Source: a bacterium UBP14_UBA6098 | GTDB taxonomy: Bacteria > UBP14 > UBA6098 | DNA: 64,000 nucleotides | Reading direction: 5' to 3' | Assembly (NCBI GenBank): GCA_002428525.1 | Contig: DIWU01000014.1 | Coordinates: forward strand, 16,637 to 80,636 | In this document: piece after piece, positions 14,614 through 62,802 of the stretch | Layout of the letters: each line of letters begins with the position of its first letter | Position numbering within the stretch: position 1 is the stretch's first letter | Translations under genes and position numbers: made by a program | The notes under the pieces: generated by a model | What the model saw: only the letters and a program-made list of their open reading frames with translations | Database searches by the model: none | Told to the model about the DNA's origin: nothing

Positions 14614-15297
14614 CTATATTCTGCTCAATGCCGCAATGTAACCGAGTTTCCTAAGTCCGGTGGGGTCGTGTGTCTCGCGGAGTCTGTTTAGGGCGCGTTC
14701 GATCCGCCCCGCGGAGTATCGCAACTCGATATCGGCCAAGGGGTGTTCGAGGCTGGCGAGTGTAAACACTGCATAGGCAAAGTGAAATCCCTGCCATCCA
14801 TACTTTTCGTCACGACACAGGCTCAAGGTCCTTAAACCGCGTTCGATAAAGGCTGTGCCTTCGGCAATCTGCGAGGCCGAGAGCGCTCGCCAAAATGCGA
14901 GACTACATGTTGCGCAACAGAAGCGACCTCTATCGGCCGAGGGCCTCGAACGGCCGGCTCTACCGAGCATCCCGATCATCCCCTCGCGAATACCGTGCTT
15001 TTCGGCACCGCGCCATTTGGCCAAGGCCCAAAAGGCCTCCTCGCCGAGCGCATGGGCAGTTCCGGCCCTCGAGCTGAGGCGCTCGCCTGTCGGGAGAATC
15101 GCGAAGGTATAATCGCCCTCGGTCGGGGCGGCAAAATTAAGGCCGTATCGGCCGGGTTCCTTCTGGCGTTTTACAATCCAATTCAAAGCCTCGTCGATCG
15201 ATTTTCGCTCGGCCTTTGCTCCCCCCAAACGAACCGATTCGAGTTTCCATAGGGTCTCCCCGAGGCTTTCGGAATTCAAGATCGCTTCGGACATCAT
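14614..15297 (-). CDS. hypothetical protein
   Basis: 227-aa ORF convergent with the GT9 gene and divergent from a membrane protein. No recognisable motifs. Confidence 0.45.
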   Translation of the reverse strand: MMSEAILNSESLGETLWKLESVRLGGAKAERKSIDEALNWIVKRQKEPGRYGLNFAAPTEGDYTFAILPTGERLSSRAGTAHALGEEAFWALAKWRGAEKHGIREGMIGMLGRAGRSRPSADRGRFCCATCSLAFWRALSASQIAEGTAFIERGLRTLSLCRDEKYGWQGFHFAYAVFTLASLEHPLADIELRYSAGRIERALNRLRETHDPTGLRKLGYIAALSRI

Positions 15298-16712: not shown

Positions 16713-16956
16713 ATCTTCGATAATGTTCTTTACGGTATTTGCCTACTCCTAAACGCGAAAGCGTTAACGCCGTTGGAAAATGCGGGATTAGTGAGTGCCG
16801 CTTTTGGGGGATAATCGTTGCATTTCCCCTCCTTTCCCCAACGATGTCCCCCCCTCCGACGGCTATGGAGCTTTTATCCCTTCTATTCCTGCCCCTTTGT
16901 CGAAGATTATAATCTCACTTAAAAGGCGCCGCCCCCCGCGGCGCTTTTGATTTTTT
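16713..16956 (+). ncRNA. candidate small RNA or long attenuator-type leader (promoter to intrinsic terminator, ~245 nt)
   Basis: Bounded by the promoter above and a strong terminator (GGCGCCGC-CCCCC-GCGGCGC plus TTTTGATTTTTT, 16925-16956). No ORF of 60 aa or more. Ends 58 nt upstream of the cbpA-like start. Confidence 0.3.
16925..16956 (+). terminator. Rho-independent terminator
   Basis: An 8-bp GC stem with a CCCCC loop followed by a T-tract. Confidence 0.6.
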
Positions 16957-25375: not shown

Positions 25376-27117
25376 AAGTGCAAGTCCCCGATGAAGATAT
25401 CCTTTATCCTAAGCTGAAGTTGCGGGTAGCCGTAGTAGTCGTTGGATTCGACCACAAATGCCAAGTTGATCGGCTCGATCGCATTGTCGAGCGCATACTT
25501 CATCTCGCCAAATCCGAAGGCGATGGCGTCCAACGCTTTGCCCCCCGCGCGAATACGAAAGCGCAGATGGTTTTTGCCGACAATCCTCGCCGGCTCTAAA
25601 AGCTCCGCGTTCGTGATACAAAAGATAGGCCGCATATTCTTCGGGCCGTAGGGCGAGAAGAGCTTCAGCCAATCCAATAACTGCATATCGATTTCCGAGG
25701 CGTCAATCTTTGCGTCGATCTTCAGCTGTGGAACAAGGTCTTCCTCGGTCAGCCGTTCGTTGGCGACGCGCAAAAATTCGCGTCGGAAATCCTCGATCTT
25801 GTCGGGTTTGATACACAAGCCGGCGGCGTATTTGTGCCCCCCGAATTTCTCGAGGTGCTCGCTGGATTCCTTGATCGCGTCGAGCAGGTGGAAGCTGGAG
25901 ATAGTCCTCGCGCTTCCCTGTCCCTCGCCCTCGGCCGTCGAGATCAAGACAGCCGGACGGTGGTATTTCTCGACCAGTCGGCTCGCGACAATCCCGATAA
26001 CCCCGACATGCCAGTCGCCGGACTCGATCACGATAGCCTTGTCGTTATCGAGATCGACTGTTTTCTCGACCAGCTCGACCGCCTTCTCGAATATCTGCTC
26101 GTCGAGCTTCTTGCGCTTTTTGTTCTCCTCGTCGAGCAATCTCGCCATCTGTGCGGCATAAAAGGAATCGTTGGTTGTTAAAAGCTTAAATGCGCTCGAG
26201 GCGGAGCCTATACGCCCGACCGCGTTGAGCCGCGGCGCGAGGACAAAGACGATATTCCAGCTGAAAAGCTCCGTTCCCCATAGACTCGTCACCTGAAGCA
26301 GGCTTTTAAGGCCGGGCTTCTTAGTCGATTCGAGCTGACGAAGGCCGAACTTCGCAAGAATTCGGTTCTCGCCGGTCAAGGGGACAATATCGGCCACAGT
26401 GCCGAGCCCGACTAAATCGAGATGCTCGAAAAGCGCGCCTTTGTCCTCTCCAAGCTCGTTGAATATAGCCTCCGCAAGTTTGAAGGCCACTCCGACACCG
26501 GCCAATTCCCGCGAGGGCGAATCCTCCGCCCCGAGCTTCGGATCGACAAGGGCAACCGCGTTCGGAAGCCTTTCAGCGGGCTCGTGATGATCGGTGATAA
26601 CACAGTCTATGCCCTTCGAGGTGGCGTATTCGACCTCATCGACACCGGTGATTCCGCAGTCAACGGAGATCAGTAGCGTAACGCCCTTGCCGACCGCATC
26701 GTCGATACCGCCCTTGCTCAGGCCGTAACCCTCCTCGACCCTGTCGGGAAGATACCACTCGACATCGGCGCCGAACCGCGTCAAGACAAGATAAACAAGT
26801 GCCGTGGCTGTGATCCCGTCAACATCGTAGTCGCCAAAGATCACGATCTTCTCGTTATGAGCCAAAGCCGAAATCACCCGCTTGACAGCCTTCTCCATTC
26901 CGGGAAGCTCCATCGGGTCTAATAGGTCGTCCAGCGTGGGATAGAAGAAGGTCTTCATATCCTTGGCCGTGGTAACCTCGCGGTTGACCAGAATCTGGCT
27001 GATTATACGGGGAATATCAAGCTCTTTTGCAAGCTCTCTCGAAAGCCTCGGATTGATCTGCTCGGCGAGGGTCCAAATCATTGGATCCCCTTTCTGTGCT
27101 GTGCAGAAATCGGACAA
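25372..27117 (-). CDS. recJ: single-stranded-DNA-specific exonuclease RecJ
   Basis: DHH motifs (VIFGDYDVDGITA, DHH in VITDHHEP) and a DHHA1 domain. The real start may be the internal Met (MIWTLAEQ at 27081), because the first Met abuts rnpB. Confidence 0.85.
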   Translation of the reverse strand: MSDFCTAQKGDPMIWTLAEQINPRLSRELAKELDIPRIISQILVNREVTTAKDMKTFFYPTLDDLLDPMELPGMEKAVKRVISALAHNEKIVIFGDYDVDGITATALVYLVLTRFGADVEWYLPDRVEEGYGLSKGGIDDAVGKGVTLLISVDCGITGVDEVEYATSKGIDCVITDHHEPAERLPNAVALVDPKLGAEDSPSRELAGVGVAFKLAEAIFNELGEDKGALFEHLDLVGLGTVADIVPLTGENRILAKFGLRQLESTKKPGLKSLLQVTSLWGTELFSWNIVFVLAPRLNAVGRIGSASSAFKLLTTNDSFYAAQMARLLDEENKKRKKLDEQIFEKAVELVEKTVDLDNDKAIVIESGDWHVGVIGIVASRLVEKYHRPAVLISTAEGEGQGSARTISSFHLLDAIKESSEHLEKFGGHKYAAGLCIKPDKIEDFRREFLRVANERLTEEDLVPQLKIDAKIDASEIDMQLLDWLKLFSPYGPKNMRPIFCITNAELLEPARIVGKNHLRFRIRAGGKALDAIAFGFGEMKYALDNAIEPINLAFVVESNDYYGYPQLQLRIKDIFIGDLHF

Positions 27118-27472
27118 AGTGATTCGATTCTATAAGCCGGGTTCTGTCCCCGAATATCGGGGGGCGCCCATCTATCTAAATGCCGAATTGCTTCGACACT
27201 TCTGCGGCCTACCCGAGGGTCACAGGGGGAAGTCGCCCCTACCCTTCTATTTGGCCTTGCTCGACGCGGGGTTTTCCGCGGCCTTGCCTCTCGACAGACC
27301 GAGCGGTGTCTTACCTCCGCACTTTTCACCCTTACCCCCGAGGGGGCGGTATAGTTTCTGTGGCACTTTCCGTCCTTCGGAATAACCGAAAGCCCGGGAT
27401 TATCCCCGGCGCGCTGACTTCTCGAGCCCGGACTTTCCTCCCCATTGGGGCGGACGCCCGAATCGAATCATT
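27118..27472 (-). ncRNA. rnpB: RNase P RNA (bacterial type A)
   Basis: The minus strand contains GGAGGAAAGUCCGGGCUCGAGAAG (P4 strand), GGGUAAGGGUGAAAAGUGCGGAGGUAAGACACC, and ACAGAACCCGGCUUAUAG near the 3' end. P1 forms between 5'-GAUUCGAUUC and 3'-GAAUCGAAUC. Confidence 0.85.
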
Positions 27473-39458: not shown

Positions 39459-41195
39459 ATGAAGTCATTCAGAAAAACCATCGGAAACAACCGCGGTAGC
39501 GTGATGCTTATCGTCATTATGGTGGTTATCATCATCTCGATTATCTCCCTCTTGGTCCTCGCCGCAAGCCAATATAACACAAAACTTACCGCGAACGAAC
39601 GTCACCGCAAACGCGCCTTCTATATCGCCGAATCCGGCGCGATGATGGCCATCGACTCCCTGAACCGAAACGACCAAATCAATGGCGTTATCTACACAAA
39701 CGAACCTATGGATGGTGGAACATTCTCGGTAGAGGTTTACGATTCATCGAATTTCGCTTGGCTTGCACAAGATGAACGCTTGATCCGCTCCTTAGGCGTC
39801 TCCCGAAATGCGGTGCGTCGGCTCGAGTATGTCGTGAAGTTCGCGGTTATGGGATACGACCAAATACCCGGACCGCTTTATATCGAAGCCCCGACTCCCC
39901 ATTTTGCAGGCAATGTTTTCACAGTTCAAGGCGGAGACCACCACTGGGGCGATGCAATTTATAATATCCCCGTCCCCCCGGGCGACCACCGCCGGTCGGT
40001 TGCCACGATCCACGATTCATCGAGCATTATTTCCGCAATAGGCTCCCATAGCGATCAAATTTTCACTGTAGATGCCGCAGGGAATTATATAGAGGGCTCT
40101 GTCTGGCCTAACCGCGATACCCTCGACCTCGAGGCCCTCGCCGCGGCCTTCGCCGGCGAGCACGGCGAGCTTGCCGATACTATCGGATGGGTCATAGGCG
40201 CTTTCCCGAACGACTACAAAGTCAGCTACCTCGATGGAGATTTTACCATCGCCGGCGGTGGCCATACACCCTCTGGTGGTAGTGGACTATACACATGCCC
40301 GAATTGCGAGGGAACAGGCATTATCAACTGCTGGGGGTGTCAAGGAACCGGTTACGAATGGCTGGCTCGCGATTGCCCTAACTGCCTCGGCACAGGGAAA
40401 GTGGGTTGTGCTACTTGCGACAGCTTGGGCTATTTCACTTGCCCCGACTGCGGAGGCACCGGCGGCACTCCGGTCGCGTGCGATAGTTGCCTCGGCTCGG
40501 GAATCTACGGCTGTCTTGTTTGCGATGGAACCGGCGTTTGCCCGATCTGCAATGGAACTGGCATTTCGAAAACAGCTGGCGGTAACTATTGGTCTTGCTA
40601 CCGTTGCGGCGACGGCCAGAAAAACGGTGTCGTCGGAACAGGGCTTTGCCCCGATTGCGGCGGAACGGGTGGAATCCCTTGCCCCTATTGTAGCGGAACC
40701 GGTGTCGATCCATCCTCCGGTTGTGCGACCTGCGGCGGAACAGGGATTATTCCCTGTTCGGATTGCGCAGGCACAGGGAAAATCGACTGTCCGGTTTGCG
40801 GAGGAACGGGAGGAATCGGCTCGGACAGAATATGTCATGTTTGCAACGGAACCGGCACACAAGTTTGCCCATGGTGCATCGGCTCGGGCCTTGTGAGTGA
40901 AGAGGGCGGTGGTCACGGAGCGAAGGGCACTCTCGGAGCGGGCGTCCTCGTCGTCACGGGGAATCTCCATATCTCCGGTCAGTTCGAATTCTCGGGCCTC
41001 ATCATAGTTCTCGGCGAGGTCTCGGTAGATATCACCGGCGGCGGCCAAGGAGTGCATATATGGGGCTCTCTGCTCTGTAAGTCGGTCGATTTCAAAATAG
41101 CCGGAAACGCCGATATCTGCTGGTGCAGAGAAGCCCTCGAGATGCTTCCTACCAGACCCGCGGGTTTCCAAGTCATGTCCGTGATGGAGTATTAG
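39459..41195 (+). CDS. PilX_N/GspK-like pilus-tip-type protein with array of 16 CxxC motifs, 13 of them DnaJ-type CxxCxG[TS]G (putative Zn/disulfide module)
   Basis: N-terminus NNRGSVMLIVIMVVIIISIISLLVLAASQYNTKLTANERHRKRAFYIAESGAMMA matches the PilX N-terminal domain pattern. Residues ~275-480 carry 16 CxxC motifs, 13 of which are followed by xG[TS]G (CPNCEGTG, CWGCQGTG, CPDCGGTG and others). Confidence 0.7.
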   Translation: MKSFRKTIGNNRGSVMLIVIMVVIIISIISLLVLAASQYNTKLTANERHRKRAFYIAESGAMMAIDSLNRNDQINGVIYTNEPMDGGTFSVEVYDSSNFAWLAQDERLIRSLGVSRNAVRRLEYVVKFAVMGYDQIPGPLYIEAPTPHFAGNVFTVQGGDHHWGDAIYNIPVPPGDHRRSVATIHDSSSIISAIGSHSDQIFTVDAAGNYIEGSVWPNRDTLDLEALAAAFAGEHGELADTIGWVIGAFPNDYKVSYLDGDFTIAGGGHTPSGGSGLYTCPNCEGTGIINCWGCQGTGYEWLARDCPNCLGTGKVGCATCDSLGYFTCPDCGGTGGTPVACDSCLGSGIYGCLVCDGTGVCPICNGTGISKTAGGNYWSCYRCGDGQKNGVVGTGLCPDCGGTGGIPCPYCSGTGVDPSSGCATCGGTGIIPCSDCAGTGKIDCPVCGGTGGIGSDRICHVCNGTGTQVCPWCIGSGLVSEEGGGHGAKGTLGAGVLVVTGNLHISGQFEFSGLIIVLGEVSVDITGGGQGVHIWGSLLCKSVDFKIAGNADICWCREALEMLPTRPAGFQVMSVMEY

Positions 41196-41252
41196 GAAGG
41201 TTATAGGGGTTAGGTTATGGGTGCTGGGTTATAGGTTATAGGCATTACCCTA

Positions 41253-41281
41253 GGGGCGTATTGAATACGCCCTTTTTATTG
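41253..41281 (+). terminator. Rho-independent terminator (first hairpin of array, after pilin operon)
   Basis: GGGCGTAT-TGAA-ATACGCCC followed by CTTTTTATT. Confidence 0.6.
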
Positions 41282-41505
41282 GCAAATTGCCGTAGGGTTA
41301 TGGGTGCTGGGTTATAGGTTATGGGCATTACACTAAGGCGCTTAGGAAAGCGCCAACAAGCCTCTGCCGTCATTGCGAGAAGGGCGAAGCCCGACGAAGC
41401 AATCTGTTCCGATGAGGGGGGGTAAAAGGTAAAGGGTAAAAGCTGAAAGGCTTTACACGAGTGCGCTTATGAAAGCGCTTATTACCCACAGCATGCAAAT
41501 CCGTA

Positions 41506-41538
41506 GGGGCCGGTCTCGCGCCGGCCCTTTATTTTTCC
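41506..41538 (+). terminator. Rho-independent terminator (fourth hairpin of array)
   Basis: GGGCCGG-TCTCGCG-CCGGCCC followed by TTTATTTTTCC. Confidence 0.55.
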
Positions 41539-41768
41539 GTAGGGTCGAGGCCTGCCTCGACCACTTTGTTAGGTTATTGGTCTTGGGTTATGGGTTTTAC
41601 ACGAAGGGCGCGGGGAGCGCCCTTTATAACGAAGGCGTATCGAAACGACCGCCTCGCGAATATGGCTTCTATACCGGCTAAAACCCCACTCAGCCAAAGG
41701 TCTCAGGTCGTTTAGCAAAATCGAAACGCCGGTAGTTATTGCTTTTCGGATTTAGTTCAGCCAGAGAT

Positions 41769-44243
41769 TTATTTCGCCGCGCTCTCGGCCTCTTCCTCTT
41801 GGATCTCGTCGGTTTGAACCGCGGTGAAACTCAGTTCCGAGCCGTTCTCCGCGATATCGATCTGAACCACCGAGTTCCATGGGATAGTCCCCTCGACGAT
41901 CTTCGTCGAAATCGGATCCTCGATATACTGCTGAATAGCCTTTTTAAGCGGCCTCGCGCCCAAATTCGGATCGAAGCCCTTCCGCGCGATGAACATGCGC
42001 GCCGCGTCCTTGACATCGAGAACCATATTCCTATGACGCACGCGGCGGTTGACCTCGGCGATCTCGAGCGAGACAATCCTCTCGATCGCCGCAAAATCGA
42101 GCGGCTTGAAAACGACGATCTTGTCGATTCGGTTTAAAAACTCCGGGCGCATCGTCGACTTCAACTCGCGGAGCATATCGCGCTCCATCCCCTCGATATC
42201 GACGACATTATCCTTGGCGTCGAAGCCAAGCTGGCTGGAGATTAGGTGCTTGGTGCCGATATTCGAGGTCATGATAACGATTGTGTTTTTAAAGCTGACC
42301 CTTCGGCCGAAGCTGTCGGTGAGGATGCCGTCGTCGAGCACCTGAAGCAGGATTCCGAAGACCTCGGGGTGCGCCTTCTCGATCTCATCGAAAAGCACGA
42401 CACTGTAGGGGTGGCGGCGAACACTCTCGGTGAGGGTTCCACCCTCGTCATAACCGACATAACCGGGAGGCGCTCCGACCAGCCTGCTAACCGAGAATTT
42501 TTCCATATACTCGGACATATCGACACGAATGAGCGCCTCATCCGTTCCGAAAAGGAACTTCGTGATGATACGCGCCATATGCGTCTTCCCGACACCGCTG
42601 GGGCCCATGAACATGAAGCTTCCGACAGGCCTGTCCGGGTTGCCGAGACCGGCTCTGCTCCTGCGAATCGCCGATGAAACCGCATCGATGGCCTGATCTT
42701 GACCGATAAGCTCTCTCCCGAGGGTTTTTTCCATCTCGATAAGGCGCTTTGCGTCGTCCTTGCCTATCTCGGCGATGGGGATCCCCGTCATTCGGCTCGC
42801 TACCTTGGCAATATCGGCGGCGTTGACCGAGGGGCGGTTCTCCTCGCGTTGGCGGTGCCATTCCTCCTCTTCGCGGTTGAAACGAAGCTTCATCTCGCGA
42901 ATCTCGTCGCGAAGCTTGGCCGCGCGCTCGAATTCTTGGCTCGCAATCGCGGCCTCTTTGGCGCGTTCGACCTCGGCGATCTCCAGCTCGAGGTTAATTA
43001 AAAACTCGGGCTTGACATAACCCGCGAGGTTGACCATTGCGCCGGCCTCGTCGAGCAGATCGATGGATTTGTCCGGTTGATATCTGCCCTGAACGAATCT
43101 GTCCGAGTAGCGAACCGAGGCCTCGATCGCATCGTCGGTGATCTCGACCTTGTGGTGGTCTTCGTATTTTTTTCGAAGGCCGAGCAGTATCTCGATGGTT
43201 TCTTTCGAGCCGGGGGGATCGACCGTGACAGTTTGGAACCTGCGCTCGAGAGCGCCGTCCTTTTCGATATACTTGCGATATTCTTCGAGGGTTGTCGCGC
43301 CGATACATTGGAGTTCGCCATTGGCGAGCATGGGCTTGAGTATATTCGATGCGTCGAGGGCGCCCTCCGCGCCGCCGGCGCCTACTATCGTGTGGATTTC
43401 GTCGATGAAGAGGATAATCTTGGAGTCGCCGACGATCTCGTCGAGGACAGCCTTGATGCGCTCCTCGAACTGCCCGCGGTATTTCGTCCCCGCGACGAGG
43501 CCGGCCAAATCGAGGCTGACAATCCGCTTCGCTTGGAGCAGATACGGAACTTCCTTGAGAATAATCCTCTGCGCCAAACCCTCGACTATCGCGGTTTTGC
43601 CGACTCCCGGCTCGCCGATAAGCACAGGGTTGTTCTTCTTTCTGCGGCATAAAATCTGCGCAAGCCGCTCGATCTCCTTCTCGCGCCCGATAACCGGATC
43701 CAATCGCCCCTTAACTGCCAACTCGGTGACATCCCTGCCAAAATGGTCGAGCGAAGGGGTTTTCCCCGAGCCGGTGTTTTCCTTAGCCGGACGATCCTTC
43801 AGGCCGCCCGAGTTAAGATCGCCCAATATCCTGATCGCCTCGGAATAGGTAACATCATACATCATAAGGACTTGAGCGGCTAAAGACTTACCCTCTTTTA
43901 GCATGGCCAATAAAAGATGCTCTGTGCCAACCCTGCTCGAGTTCGTGTTTCGGGACTCGATCGCGGATTGCTCGATCGCCTTGTTCGCACGGGCGGTCAT
44001 AATGATATGCCCAAGAAAATAGGTCGATTCGCCGGCGTCGAGCATGTCCTCGATGGTCTTGCGAATATCCATCGGCTCGATCCGCGCCGCCCTGATTATC
44101 GAAATCGCGCCGCCCTCTCCCTCGCGAATAATCCCCAAAAGCAGATGCTCCGTTCCAATATAGGAATGCCCGAGCCGCGCGGCCTCCTCGCGGGCGAATT
44201 GAAGAATCTTCTTGAATCTATCCGAGTATGGGCTGTTTATCAT
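41769..44243 (-). CDS. clpC: ATP-dependent Clp protease ATP-binding subunit ClpC/ClpA-type (two AAA+ modules, Clp_N repeats)
   Basis: Two N-terminal Clp_N repeats, Walker A motifs GEPGVGKT and GPSGVGKT, and an NBD1-middle-NBD2 architecture. 824 aa. Confidence 0.85.
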   Translation of the reverse strand: MINSPYSDRFKKILQFAREEAARLGHSYIGTEHLLLGIIREGEGGAISIIRAARIEPMDIRKTIEDMLDAGESTYFLGHIIMTARANKAIEQSAIESRNTNSSRVGTEHLLLAMLKEGKSLAAQVLMMYDVTYSEAIRILGDLNSGGLKDRPAKENTGSGKTPSLDHFGRDVTELAVKGRLDPVIGREKEIERLAQILCRRKKNNPVLIGEPGVGKTAIVEGLAQRIILKEVPYLLQAKRIVSLDLAGLVAGTKYRGQFEERIKAVLDEIVGDSKIILFIDEIHTIVGAGGAEGALDASNILKPMLANGELQCIGATTLEEYRKYIEKDGALERRFQTVTVDPPGSKETIEILLGLRKKYEDHHKVEITDDAIEASVRYSDRFVQGRYQPDKSIDLLDEAGAMVNLAGYVKPEFLINLELEIAEVERAKEAAIASQEFERAAKLRDEIREMKLRFNREEEEWHRQREENRPSVNAADIAKVASRMTGIPIAEIGKDDAKRLIEMEKTLGRELIGQDQAIDAVSSAIRRSRAGLGNPDRPVGSFMFMGPSGVGKTHMARIITKFLFGTDEALIRVDMSEYMEKFSVSRLVGAPPGYVGYDEGGTLTESVRRHPYSVVLFDEIEKAHPEVFGILLQVLDDGILTDSFGRRVSFKNTIVIMTSNIGTKHLISSQLGFDAKDNVVDIEGMERDMLRELKSTMRPEFLNRIDKIVVFKPLDFAAIERIVSLEIAEVNRRVRHRNMVLDVKDAARMFIARKGFDPNLGARPLKKAIQQYIEDPISTKIVEGTIPWNSVVQIDIAENGSELSFTAVQTDEIQEEEAESAAK

Positions 44244-44558: not shown

Positions 44559-45545
44559 TTATGCTATAAGAAGCCCGATAGCGGCGACATTGACGATATC
44601 GTCAACGGAGCAACCGCGGGAGAGATCGTTCGCCGGTTTGGCGAGGCCCTGAATGAAGGGGCCGACCGCCTCGGCGCCGGCGAGGCGCTGAGTCAGCTTG
44701 TAACCGATATTTCCGGCATCGAGATCGGGGAAGACGAGGACATTAGCCTTGCCGGCGACCTCGCTACCGGGCGCTTTCGAAGCGCCAATCTTCTCGATGA
44801 GCGCCGCATCGGCCTGAAGCTCGCCATCGACCTTGAGATCCGGGCGGAGCTTTTTAACAATCTCGAGTGCGGCGAGGACCTTGTCGATGTCCTCGTGTTT
44901 GCTACTGCACTTCGTCGAGAAGCTGAGCATTGCAACATAAGGCTCGATGCCGAGGAGCTTCTTTGAATTGTCGGCGCTGGCTATCGCGATAGAGGCGAGT
45001 TGCTCGGGGTCGGGGTTCGGGATGACCGCACAATCTGCGAATATTATCGGATATTCTTTTTGACCGCGGAATTCGGGCATAACCATAATGAAATAGCTCG
45101 AAACAGCCTTGATCCCCTCGGCGACTCCGACAACCTGAAGCGCGGCCTTGAGGACATTGCCGGTGGAGTTCTTAGCGCCGGCGATATTGGCATCGACAAT
45201 CCCCTTGCGAAGCATCATCGCGCCCCAGAAAAGCGGGTCGAGCATTGTCTCGCGGGCCTGCTCGATCGTCACGCCCTTGTGTGCGCGGAGTCTGTGAAAT
45301 TCCGCGGCGAACTCCTCGTGACCGGCCGCGCCCGGTTCCACGATTTTCGCAAGCGATATATCGGCGCCCTCGCTTCGAGCCAGCTCATGAACCGCCTCCG
45401 GTTTCCCAACGATAAATACTTCACAGATCTTATTCTTTGTCAATATCTCGGCGGCATGCATCATCCGCGGCTCATCGCCCTCCGGAAGAACAACCTTGCC
45501 GCCCTTGGCCTTAGCTCTCGCCTTGAAATCTTCGAGCATTTTCAT
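44559..45545 (-). CDS. pta: phosphate acetyltransferase
   Basis: Pta core only (~330 aa) with motifs [17 protein letters not shown] and ADALI...[12 protein letters not shown]. Confidence 0.85.
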
Positions 45546-45639
45546 AGTGTCGCCCCTTATCTAAATTGCATGTTGATTTGGTCGAATAAATATATTGATA
45601 ATCGTCAAACGCGCAAACAAAATCAGAGCTTTCTTCGCA

Positions 45640-45740
45640 ACCCCGGGCGTCGGCCCGACCGATGGTCGGCGCGAGGCGGCCGATCGAAGATTTCCGCAAA
45701 ACCGACATTTTCTTCGGCCGCCTCGCCGGCGCCGCGCTCA
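45640..45740. repeat. REP/MITE-like palindromic intergenic element (copy 5, partial)
   Basis: CCGGGCGTCGG core at 45643, hairpin CCGACCGATGGTCGG, and a perfect 13-bp IR GCGAGGCGGCCGA...TCGGCCGCCTCGC. Confidence 0.45.
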
Positions 45741-45866
45741 CGACGGCCCTTTCCCCCGCACCGCCGACCACCACGACCGGCAGGCCCTTCAAGCTCGGCC
45801 TCATCATAATCTCGACCGAGGCGAAAAAGGCGTCCATATCGACAAGCATTATCTCGCGTGGCGCGC

Positions 45867-47126
45867 TCATATCGCCCTCGGGAGTTCGTCCCAATCGGTC
45901 GTGTAGGCGGGGGATTTCATCTCGCGCCGCATATGCCATGCGGCTCCGAGGCCGGTCGCGGCGGGCACGACCGTATCCCTTCCGAAGCGGTGGTTCAGCT
46001 CGTCCATAACGGAAATCGCGTTCTCGTTCCGGCCGCGCATCGCCGTGTCGAAGAGGTTTGTTTGAACCGAATCCGCGGGGACAACTCCGGTCGCGGTGAC
46101 CGCGGCCTTTTTGTAGCGATAACCCGCGCGGAAGATTCGCTCGAGGCCGCTTGCCGCATAGTCGATGATCTCCGATGTGTCCGATGTTGCGACCGGGAAG
46201 GTCCTTGTAAGGTGCGCCGAATACTGCGGGTCTTCCTCGCGAAAGCGGTTGGTTGTGATATATATATCGATCGCGCCGGCGACTGATTCTTGACCTCGGA
46301 GCTTCTCGGCGACGCGCGCGGAGTAGGACGCGACGGCCTCCTTCAGCTCCCGAAGTTCTTCGACAGGCCGTCCGAAAGAACGCGAGAAACATATCCCCTG
46401 CTTGGGCGGGGGCGCCATATCGAGCGGAATGCACGATATTCCTCGAAGTTCCAGCACGGTTCGGAGAAGCGTGACGCCGAACTCCTTGCGTATAATCTGC
46501 TCGTTCGCCCTCGAAAGATCGAGCGCGCTATTTATGCCCATATTTCGAAGTCGCTTGGACAGTCTGCGCCCGACGCCCCAAATATCGATGATGTCGGTCG
46601 CTTCGAGGGCCTTTTCTCGAAACCTCGATTTGAAAAGGTCGAGAACGCCGCCCGCCTTTGGCGATTTTTTCGCGATTCGATTTGCGATCTTGGCGAGGGT
46701 TTTTGTTTCGGCTATTCCAACAGATACCGGCAGGCCGGTCCATGTGTAGATTCGGCGCTTTATCCGCCTTCCTTCCGCGTCGAGATCGTCGGTGCCGTCG
46801 AGGCCGACGAAGGCCTCGTCTATCGAATAAACCTCGATGTCGGGCGAGAAGCCGCGGAGTATGTCCATAACGCGCGCGGACATATCGCCGTAAAGCTCGT
46901 AGTTCGAGGAGAACACCCTCACGCCCTTTCGGGCCAGCTCGGCTTTGATCTTGAAATACGGCCCCCCCATCTCGACGCCGAGGGCCTTGGCCTCCGCCGA
47001 CCGCGCGATGATGCAACCGTCGTTGTTGGAGAGCACGACTACCGGCCTGTTCTTGAGGTCTGGCCGGAAGACCTTCTCACAGGAGGCGTAGAAGCTATTG
47101 CAGTCGATGAGGGCGTATATCTTCAT
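45867..47126 (-). CDS. umuC: Y-family translesion DNA polymerase, UmuC-like (Pol V catalytic subunit)
   Basis: [30 protein letters not shown] and SIDEAF motifs. Lies downstream of an S24-peptidase (umuD) gene. Confidence 0.85.
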
Positions 47127-62771: not shown

Positions 62772-62802
62772 AATTAAAAGGGCGCACTCGATGCGCGCCC
62801 TT
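62772..62802 (-). terminator. Rho-independent terminator for the 62835..63224 gene
   Basis: AAGGGCGC...GCGCCCTT stem. On the minus strand it is followed by TTTTAATTTG. Confidence 0.5.

Follow-up and report, generated by a model that had tools for sequence, protein, structure and literature searches.

What kind of element fills the spacer at positions 41196-41768 of a 64,000-nt stretch of contig DIWU01000014.1 (bacterium UBP14_UBA6098; the whole stretch is hereafter the window), between the TAG stop of a type IV minor-pilin operon and the stop of a ClpC-type gene? The first-pass annotation, made from the letters alone, had described a 565-bp convergent intergenic region carrying at least six GC hairpins and flanking heptamer repeats; the spacer is indeed convergent, although it measures 573 nt from stop to stop. 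We consider it probable that the spacer is a mosaic of multi-copy extragenic repeats, resembling clusters of repetitive extragenic palindromes (REPs) and bacterial interspersed mosaic elements (BIMEs), carried by a Zixibacteria-like genome, with REP-like hairpins fused to heptamer repeats. Its building blocks are of three kinds: composite modules, GTAG-tagged GC hairpins, and GTCATTGCGAG...GCAATC palindromes. The modules are dispersed, modular and co-oriented with the upstream gene, and recombine in different combinations. From the pilin side to the clpC side, the features are as follows.

41196-41248, plus strand: heptamer block A, of the GGTTATR type, with 20 G and 3 C; holds copy 1 of the 37-nt repeat and ends in GGCATTAC.
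41252-41281 (stem 41254-41272), plus strand: hairpin A, AGGGGCGTAT-TGA-ATACGCCCTT followed by a T-tract, with a CTAG head; -13.8 kcal/mol, z = -3.9.
41283-41297, plus strand: linker CAAATTGCCGTAGGG with a GTAG tag; an identical 15-mer lies in a second array (L130).
41295-41331, plus strand: heptamer block B, which is copy 2 of the 37-nt direct repeat and ends in GGCATTAC.
41337-41354, plus strand: hairpin B, GGCGCTT-AGGA-AAGCGCC, no T-tract; -11.9 kcal/mol.
41369-41408, plus strand: imperfect palindrome GTCATTGCGAG...CGAAGCAATCTGTT with an inner GGGC/GCCC hairpin.
41416-41456, plus strand: heptamer block C, a G7 run and GGTAAAA-type units, ending in GGCTTTAC; from the sequence and Tandem Repeats Finder (TRF).
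41463-41478, plus strand: hairpin C, GCGCTT-ATGA-AAGCGC; -8.3 kcal/mol.
41501-41536, plus strand: GTAG-tagged hairpin, CCGTAG, then GGGCCGG-TCTCGCG-CCGGCCC, then TTTATTTTT, terminator-like; -18.6 kcal/mol.
41537-41562, plus strand: GTAG-tagged hairpin, CCGTAG, then GGTCGAGG-CCTG-CCTCGACC, with a weak T-tail; -15.2 kcal/mol, z = -4.0.
41565-41600, plus strand: heptamer block D (TTTGTTAGGTTATTGGTCTTGGGTTATGGGTTTTAC), from the sequence.
41604-41624, plus strand: hairpin D, AAGGGCGC-GGGGA-GCGCCCTT; -17.0 kcal/mol, z = -4.8.
41626-41768, no strand assigned: clpC-proximal remainder, with no heptamers and no strong structure (z = -0.2 and -0.6).

Each of the four composite modules in the spacer, all in one orientation, consists of a G-rich block with 7-nt periodicity, the motif GGNNTTAC, a gap of 3-6 nt and a GC hairpin, the block being built from three to six degenerate GGTTATR or GGTAAAR units (68-79% matches). 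TRF reported period-7 arrays at 41198-41242 and 41421-41450, in agreement with the periodicity noticed at first pass. The 37-bp direct repeat that had been placed near 41213 and 41297 lies at 41212-41248 and 41295-41331, where 35 of the 37 positions are identical; no copy of it is expected by chance in shuffled sequence. GGTTATRGG occurs ten times in the 64-kb window, eight of them in the spacer, against 0.37 expected from shuffles. The statement that every block is followed by TTACAC is accurate for three of the four; TTAC ends all of them, and block A reads TTACCC. On the plus strand, blocks A-D contain 11-20 G and only 2-3 C, and block A has the strongest G over C skew of the window. As RNA, block A, the sole heptamer block folded, is unstructured (z = +0.33).

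Six perfect GC stems of 6-8 bp (41254-41272, 41337-41354, 41463-41478, 41507-41527, 41543-41562 and 41604-41624) together with the imperfect palindrome bear out the count of at least six hairpins. They fold at -8.3 to -18.6 kcal/mol (z = -1.7 to -4.8), and of the 39 perfect stems of 7 bp or more in the window, five are packed into 370 bp of the spacer. A distinct perfect stem-loop had been assigned to each block; the stems are perfect, but hairpins B and C share one type, GCGCTTA[G/T]GAAAGCGC, so distinctness does not extend to every hairpin. The two stem-loops with T-tracts were recovered as terminator-like sites (41252-41274 and 41505-41529); a third, weak site was predicted at 41543-41562, and all three are on the plus strand; the minus strand of the spacer has none. 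Unpaired GTAG tags stand at 41503-41506 and 41539-41542, hairpin A has the variant CTAG at 41250, and the tagged linker CAAATTGCCGTAGGG overlaps a mini-palindrome, GGCAAATTGCC (41281-41291). As judged from tags and T-tracts, all seven hairpins share one orientation. The motif that had been seen to recur three times, CCGTAGGG, is present at 41290, 41501 and 41537, with a fourth occurrence at 25646; this number alone is not significant, being reached in 9 of 100 shuffles, whereas the GTAG tagging of hairpins (see below) is. The heptamer blocks and the hairpins are thus both real, and the region is, as first described, far more elaborate than a normal terminator.

These elements are also found elsewhere in the species. 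A second array (L130:13820-15012) occupies a 1.2-kb gene-free gap on the same ENA contig, about 0.6-1.8 kb past the right end of the window, and contains at least 12 hairpins, four of them terminator-like and on the array strand only. A third (L131:18834-19260) lies in a segment specific to the JGI strain. The repeat blocks are therefore not confined to the spacer, the outcome by which the first-pass annotation had proposed to judge its own claim. Both arrays carry the order GGGTAAAAGGTAAAGGGTTTTAC, TGTAGGGG, hairpin and T-tract, the order GGTTATAGGTTCTGGGTTATAGG...TGTTACAC and hairpin, and the order CAAATTGCCGTAGGGG, hairpin and T-tract, as well as TCCGTAGGGGCCGGTCTTGCGCCGGCCC, GTAGAAGGGCGTATCGAATACGCCC (the stem of hairpin A), GGGTTTTACACGATAGCGCTTAGGAAAGCGCC (equal to hairpin B), hairpin D in inverted form and a GTCATTGCGAG...GCAATCTGTTTG palindrome. 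Near-identical copies were found in these two intergenic arrays for five of the seven spacer hairpins, all within 1.9 kb of array sequence (about 90 kb of the species was read overall). Specifically, the hairpin A stem recurs as GTAGAAGGGCGTATCGAATACGCCC in the second array; an identical 17-mer of hairpin B follows a GGGTAAAGGGTTTTACAC block in the third; the GTCATTGCGAG palindrome has copies in both, with a 20-mer in common; the 17-mer TCCGTAGGGGCCGGTCT of the 41501-41536 hairpin is common to both; and the 15-mer GGCGCGGGGAGCGCC of hairpin D is present inverted in the third. For the hairpin at 41537-41562, no second copy was detected in the approximately 84 kb of the species sampled. Outside the hairpins, the 18-mer GGGTAAAAGGTAAAGGGT of block C is also in the second array, the 5' boundary TTTGTTAGGTTAT and the junction GGGTTTTACACGA of block D are common to the other arrays, and the linker motifs CAAATTGCCGTAGGG, TTTGTTAGGTTAT, GGGTTTTACACGA and CGTATCGAAACGA all recur between arrays, the last of them lying at 41636-41648, within the clpC-proximal remainder.

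Quantitatively, the spacer and the 1.9 kb of other arrays have 33 exact segments of 10-20 nt in common, nearly all in the same orientation, where about two are expected; in the remaining 81 kb, spacer 10-mers find matches about as often as chance predicts. Hairpins whose stems measure 6 bp or more reach a density of 10.2 per kb in the two arrays versus 1.4 per kb elsewhere, a roughly 7-fold enrichment (82.2 kb used for the hairpin statistics). A GTAG tag or TTAC linker accompanies 12 of 18 array hairpins (seven with GTAG and five with TTAC 3-11 nt upstream) compared to 4 of 113 outside (Fisher p = 9e-10), and the GTAG tag alone 7 of 18 compared to 1 of 113 (p = 2e-6). TTAC stands 3-6 nt 5' of the hairpin in all nine modules. 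The modules have also been shuffled: blocks A and B, identical at 35 of 37 positions, nevertheless have different hairpins attached, and the hairpin B type comes after GGTTATR, GGTAAAA and GGGTAAAGGG blocks. When oriented by their G-rich strand, the second and third arrays each follow a gene on the same strand, 1-4 nt past its stop codon, and block A begins directly 3' of the TAG stop, so that all three arrays begin 1-4 nt 3' of such a stop; the setting is convergent for the spacer and L131 and co-directional for L130. Since its short repeats recur elsewhere in the genome, we take the spacer to be a variant of a REP/BIME-type cluster rather than a new structured RNA.

Several further observations concern these repeats. 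On the reverse strand of L130 at about 14840-14880, and likewise in L131, a 7-nt block that is not G-rich (AATGTCA AAGCTCA AAGCTCA AATGTCA AATCAAC) continues as GCCTAAT GCCCTAAT GCCAAAT and then runs into a GTTATTGCGAG/GTCATTGCGAG palindrome; because this block, too, precedes a palindrome, the grammar of block followed by hairpin extends beyond GGTTATR units. At about 14700-15012, the right part of the second array is common to the ENA and JGI strains while the genes to the left differ, and the junction falls within a repeated element of about 130 nt that is, by eye, about 75% similar between the strains. The pattern resembles a break in synteny that falls within a repeat array, and a Logan contig (L132) also ends in this gap. 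Within the window, a hairpin after an ABC-F-like gene (62778-62802, AAGGGCGC-N9-GCGCCCTT) has an 8-bp stem identical to that of hairpin D, with a different loop and with neither TTAC nor a heptamer block; the match may be coincidental, or the hairpin may be a lone member of the family.

An array of this kind could also arise from misassembly or from chance clustering. Short-read Logan contigs do break in the spacer: three of them all end at 41344, within hairpin B, and one that comes from the clpC side ends at 41510, within the GTAG-tagged hairpin. Such end points would be expected where repeated or variable sequence makes the assembly graph branch, with loss of coverage at hairpins or G-runs as the alternative. 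Against an artefact, the complete 573-nt spacer is identical in the ENA contig ERZ27315036 k141_327079 and in the JGI assembly 3300001567, and its first 149 nt (41196-41344) are reproduced exactly by three further runs in Logan; against chance stand the shuffle expectations given above for the 37-mer and for GGTTATRGG, and the recurrence of the motifs at other loci. The assembly artefact that the first-pass annotation had asked to be considered was thus looked for and not found, and we regard this explanation, by chance or by assembly, as having practically no likelihood.

Does the spacer instead encode one or more structured non-coding RNAs, such as a small RNA (sRNA) or a 3'-untranslated-region element, in which the hairpins vary by compensatory change? 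The hairpins are stable, and a search of 41100-41850 against Rfam gave a weak sub-threshold match to Burkholderia sRNA 25 (E = 0.23; 21.4 bits, where 46 bits are required), which owes its score to the two hairpins of that sRNA. This was the best hit: nothing in that interval reached a gathering score, only noise appeared at E-values up to 10, and the Rfam comparison proposed at first pass therefore assigns the spacer to no family. The whole-region fold is unexceptional on the plus strand (z = -1.9) and the spacer contains no promoter-like site. The covariation-like behaviour that had been attributed to the hairpins does not hold, since they are separate dispersed types, B and C being one, with near-identical copies in other arrays, and hence not compensatory variants of a single structure.

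The relatives point the same way. Among named homologs of the pilin-operon protein, the closest belongs to candidate division Zixibacteria (75% identity), and type IX secretion system (T9SS) sorting domains in the window fit the Fibrobacteres-Chlorobi-Bacteroidetes (FCB) group. Relatives were found at 57-75% identity, and the three contigs compared (orthologs at 70-75%) have no array and no clpC adjacent to the pilin gene, which is followed by one plain terminator or abuts or overlaps a different gene. Across 33 kb of the relatives' sequence, no G-rich heptamer block and only a single GTAG hairpin were detected. As the region is absent from the relatives, the spacer is lineage-specific and young, not a conserved RNA, and we consider a structured non-coding RNA very improbable.

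Among described systems, the closest counterpart is the super-family of GTAG-tagged REPs, known from eight phyla and thought to be mobilised by REP-associated tyrosine transposases (RAYTs) (Di Nocera et al. 2013, PMC3733652). These lie mainly downstream of open reading frames (ORFs), between convergent or unidirectional genes, and are sometimes clustered (PMC3733652). Like them, the spacer hairpins are short GC-rich extragenic palindromes, with stems of 6-8 bp where REPs have 20-40 bp palindromes with 6-13 bp stems. An unpaired GTAG marks two of them where REPs have GTAG or a degenerate end tag, the others having a TTAC linker, and all three arrays are extragenic and downstream of ORFs, in the same convergent or unidirectional settings. 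REP genomes likewise harbour several families, in clusters interleaved with other repeats, and REPs have been proposed to be terminators or mRNA stabilisers; as in BIMEs, palindromes and other conserved short motifs form a mosaic whose linkers recur between arrays. The differences are equally clear. The spacer hairpins are nearly all head-to-tail, whereas published families rarely contain head-to-tail dimers and BIMEs have alternating units; inverted pairing, as in BIMEs and in REP doublets forming hairpins (REPINs), is limited to one or two inverted units in the other arrays. Stems are heterogeneous, several have T-tracts, the host belongs to a candidate phylum of the FCB group, no RAYT was seen across 82 kb, and half of the hairpins are joined via GGNNTTAC, not GTAG, to a heptamer block. 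This coupling of a heptamer block to a hairpin, in an uncultured phylum, is undescribed.

If the spacer is such a mosaic, REP and terminator behaviour suggests how it might act. Hairpin A with its U-tract would be the primary intrinsic terminator of the pilin-operon transcript and the hairpin at 41505-41536 a back-up, while the remaining hairpins might act as barriers to 3' exonucleases, stabilising the 3' end, or be mere passengers. The array would insulate the pilin operon and the convergent clpC from one another, and the unstructured heptamer block could lie between stop codon and terminator as a spacer or as a platform for binding. The resemblance to tandem Rho-independent terminators lies in the GC stem-loop and T-tract on the strand of the upstream operon at 41252-41281 and 41505-41536, both predicted sites; five more hairpins without a proper T-tract, and the repetition of the elements at other loci together with non-terminator motifs, set the array apart from them. 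As to origin, the hairpin units may have spread as REP-like non-autonomous elements through a RAYT/HUH-type single-strand transposase or recombination, the 7-nt blocks would most plausibly grow by replication slippage, and convergent or 3' intergenic space would tolerate the accumulation of repeats. Since heptamer blocks always lie 5' of the hairpin in this genome, one may speculate that stalling at the hairpin is linked to slippage.

Several points weigh against this interpretation. Good T-tracts accompany only two of the seven hairpins, and the head-to-tail arrangement with heterogeneous stems departs from the classical alternation of REPs in BIMEs. A REPIN/RAYT system has a cognate RAYT (Y1 HUH transposase) gene, as a rule with REPs on its flanks; no RAYT or Y1 transposase is present among the Pfam-annotated ORFs of 82 kb, as far as Pfam annotation goes, and only three arrays are known, in about 90 kb of the species. 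Both the termination and stabilisation ascribed to the array and the role ascribed to the heptamer blocks are deduced from sequence.

Two genes flank the spacer.

39459-41195, plus strand: 578-aa PilX_N-like protein (weak match), last gene of the type IV minor-pilin operon; from ORF and Pfam analysis.
41769-44243, minus strand: ClpC-type AAA+ chaperone gene, convergent, with Clp_N, AAA, UVR, AAA_2 and ClpB_D2-small domains.

The pilin-operon ORFs upstream of 39459-41195 contain N_methyl and GspH motifs. Within the spacer, a 70-aa ORF (41469-41681) that one pipeline calls as a gene was rejected as spurious: it has no Pfam match and runs across four hairpins (41507-41527, 41543-41562, 41604-41624 and the 3' arm of 41463-41478). 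TTTACA was considered as a promoter and likewise dismissed, as the spacer contains no sigma-70-like site and the spacing to a -10-like hexamer is wrong by inspection. A scan for tRNA and tmRNA found none. Elsewhere in the window, a full-length class A bacterial RNase P RNA is encoded on the minus strand at 27117-27469 (216.9 bits, the window's sole Rfam match at gathering score), and a umuD-like (Peptidase_S24) and umuC-like (IMS) pair lies on the same strand at about 45511-47126, downstream of pta. In ENA and Logan, the IMS gene appears as two calls, of 419 aa and 119 aa, and the 119-aa piece is uncalled in the JGI contig; a frameshift or a split gene may be the cause.

The heptamer blocks have precedents of their own. 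Repeats of about four G-rich heptamers have been described on the sense strand, no more than 50 nt past the stop codon (Rehm et al. 2015, PMC4692102), and the GGGAATC and GGGGA(C/T)T repeats of Xanthomonas and Nostoc are, like the blocks described here, G-rich 7-nt tandem repeats of about four units in intergenic DNA (PMC4692102). The blocks agree with that description in their period of 7, their three to six units and the position of block A directly after the stop. They differ in their degenerate GGTTATR/GGTAAAR units with mostly GG rather than GGG or GGGG runs, in lacking, apart from block B with its 11-nt loop, four consecutive G-tracts of at least three G, and in the coupling of each block to a downstream GC hairpin. 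Cyanobacterial short tandemly repeated repetitive (STRR) heptamers and the TAACTGA repeats of Beggiatoaceae, Cyanobacteria and Bacteroidetes show that one heptamer can appear at gene boundaries in distant phyla (MacGregor 2015, PMC4679880); the TAACTGA repeats, however, are mainly found just upstream of starts, are not G-rich, and are not described as coupled to hairpins (PMC4679880). A general excess of heptameric simple-sequence repeats was reported by Mrazek (2007), as discussed by MacGregor (PMC4679880), and growth of heptamer repeats by slippage is attributed to Mrazek in the same paper and in PMC4692102.

When one genome per species was scanned with GGTTATNGGNNNTGGGTTATNGG, at least 120 loci matched, where by our estimate about 17 chance matches are expected across the collection. 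The matches are mostly longer (GGTTATN)n arrays, and among those listed, to which the following counts refer, such arrays are spread over at least ten phyla: Bacteroidota, Cyanobacteria, Desulfobacterota, Chloroflexota, Acidobacteriota, Verrucomicrobiota, Myxococcota, Nitrospirota, Pseudomonadota and Poribacteria, among others. They are intergenic in 110 of 122 cases. Read along the G-rich strand, 26 arrays have the end of a same-strand gene on their 5' side (median 9.5 nt past the stop) and 41 have a divergent start there; on the 3' side, 44 face the end of an antisense gene and 11 a sense start. This placement matches that of the repeats described by Rehm et al. in Xanthomonas and Nostoc. 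A GC hairpin follows the array rarely (4 of 114), and the coupling of block and hairpin is therefore particular to this lineage and a few others.

In a metagenome scan with GGTKCTGGGTTATAGGT, a pattern so short that about half of the matches listed are chance matches within genes, the hairpin motifs of this species occurred at none of the loci listed. Four metagenome contigs (L168, L176, L236 and L234; GC 65-69%) have a stop codon followed by a heptamer block, AGGTTATAGGT[T/G]CTGGGTTATAGGTTATAGG, and a terminator hairpin; the AT-rich block AGGTTATAGGT[T/G]CTGGGTTATAGGTTAT[A/G]GG is nearly identical among the four. A ruminal Bacteroidales metagenome-assembled genome (MAG; L048), whose phylum differs from that of the window but lies within the FCB group, has GTAGGGGCGTATCGCATACGCCCCTAC, the stem of hairpin A, GTAG-tagged on both sides, at about 1267 and 6754. 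In L089, which is not a contig of this species, a GGTTATN-type array at about 5924 on the reverse strand is followed 58 nt later by GTCATTGCAAGCGCAGCGAAGCAATCTGTT, with the order and orientation of array and palindrome seen in the window. This is the single case in 883 kb in which the cattgcgag palindrome and heptamers were found together in other phyla.

The G-runs of the blocks had suggested G-quadruplex (G4) formation on the plus strand, and it could be argued that the blocks are G4-forming DNA or RNA elements for transcription, replication or mRNA 3' stability, comparable to the heptamer repeats of Xanthomonas and Nostoc. The blocks score 1.2-1.68 in G4Hunter, and block B alone fits a relaxed three-tetrad rule, G3-N4-G3-N4-G3-N11-G3, with an 11-nt loop. 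No canonical G3N1-7 motif is found in the blocks, whose runs, mostly GG, would allow two tetrads at best, and the scores are unexceptional for the window, where 67 regions reach 1.2, 61 of them outside the blocks. Related blocks do without G-runs altogether, both here (AATGTCA/AAGCTCA) and in other phyla (GAGTTAT, GGTTATT), and even the model heptamer repeats have no established function (PMC4692102). A two-tetrad G4 is possible, yet it would not be what unifies these elements, and a G4 function is in our judgement unlikely.

The opposite strand offers another candidate. Sites of Rho utilisation (rut) are in general C-rich, G-poor and unstructured. Given their base composition, the complement of the blocks, (CCCAUAACC)n, is C-rich and G-poor, and it might be the functional form: a rut site in the 3' region of clpC that serves as a Rho-dependent terminator or insulator and, in other genomes, as an attenuator in 5' leaders. 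In keeping with this, no terminator-like site was predicted for clpC on the minus strand, the remainder at 41626-41768 included; the complement is unstructured, and block A has the strongest skew of the window; and among the matches listed, from many phyla, a gene is faced by the C-rich strand more often than by the G-rich strand (44 antisense ends and 41 divergent starts versus 26 and 11). On the other hand, in three of three arrays the G-rich strand is sense with respect to the adjoining upstream gene, and one of these arrays lies between co-directional genes, where the C-rich strand is normally not transcribed; the nearest block is about 170 nt and the strongest about 520 nt from the clpC stop; and the Rho dependence of clpC would itself be deduced from features of the sequence. 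We consider the rut explanation doubtful. Separately, the strongest C-rich tract of the window (16814-16863, G4Hunter -1.88) lies just upstream of a plain terminator (16926-16944) and is unrelated in sequence to the heptamer blocks.

A more far-reaching proposal would be that the unit of heptamer block, GGNNTTAC and hairpin is an undescribed non-autonomous mobile cassette that settles right after stop codons and brings a ready-made terminator, or else a functional heptamer element shared across phyla. Such a cassette might be the product or the target of an enzyme that acts on single-strand DNA, is directed by hairpins and cuts beside TTAC or GTAG, with the 7-nt repeats as a by-product or recognition platform; the (GGTTATR)4 blocks of the high-GC contigs and the cross-phylum arrays would then reflect a shared mechanism or binding factor and not independent slippage. 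IS608 inserts 3' of TTAC, and the TTAC junction resembles this target, a resemblance and nothing beyond it: TTAC 5' of a hairpin was examined as an IS200/IS605-type end, but a transposase gene and a second end are both lacking, and a unit measures only 20-30 nt. An integron attC site, suggested by GTTAGGT (compare GTTRRRY) at the starts of blocks, was likewise set aside by inspection, there being no integrase and no R''/L'' partner. We regard the cassette, in either form, as a rather unlikely explanation, and favour a mosaic of dispersed REP-like hairpins and heptamer repeats.

If correct, this reading would extend known repeat classes without invoking a new mechanism, a useful if unsurprising outcome. 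Mosaics in the style of REPs and BIMEs, described mainly in Proteobacteria and a few other phyla, would now include an uncultured, Zixibacteria-like lineage of the FCB group. As the arrays break short-read assemblies and one coincides with an apparent synteny breakpoint between strains, they are relevant to the contiguity of MAGs and to the analysis of rearrangements. Finally, heptamer repeats tied to terminator-like hairpins after stop codons would provide a concrete context for the role of bacterial heptamers, which may act as an element upstream of terminators, as a binding platform or as a rut site on the opposite strand, or may be a by-product of slippage at hairpins.

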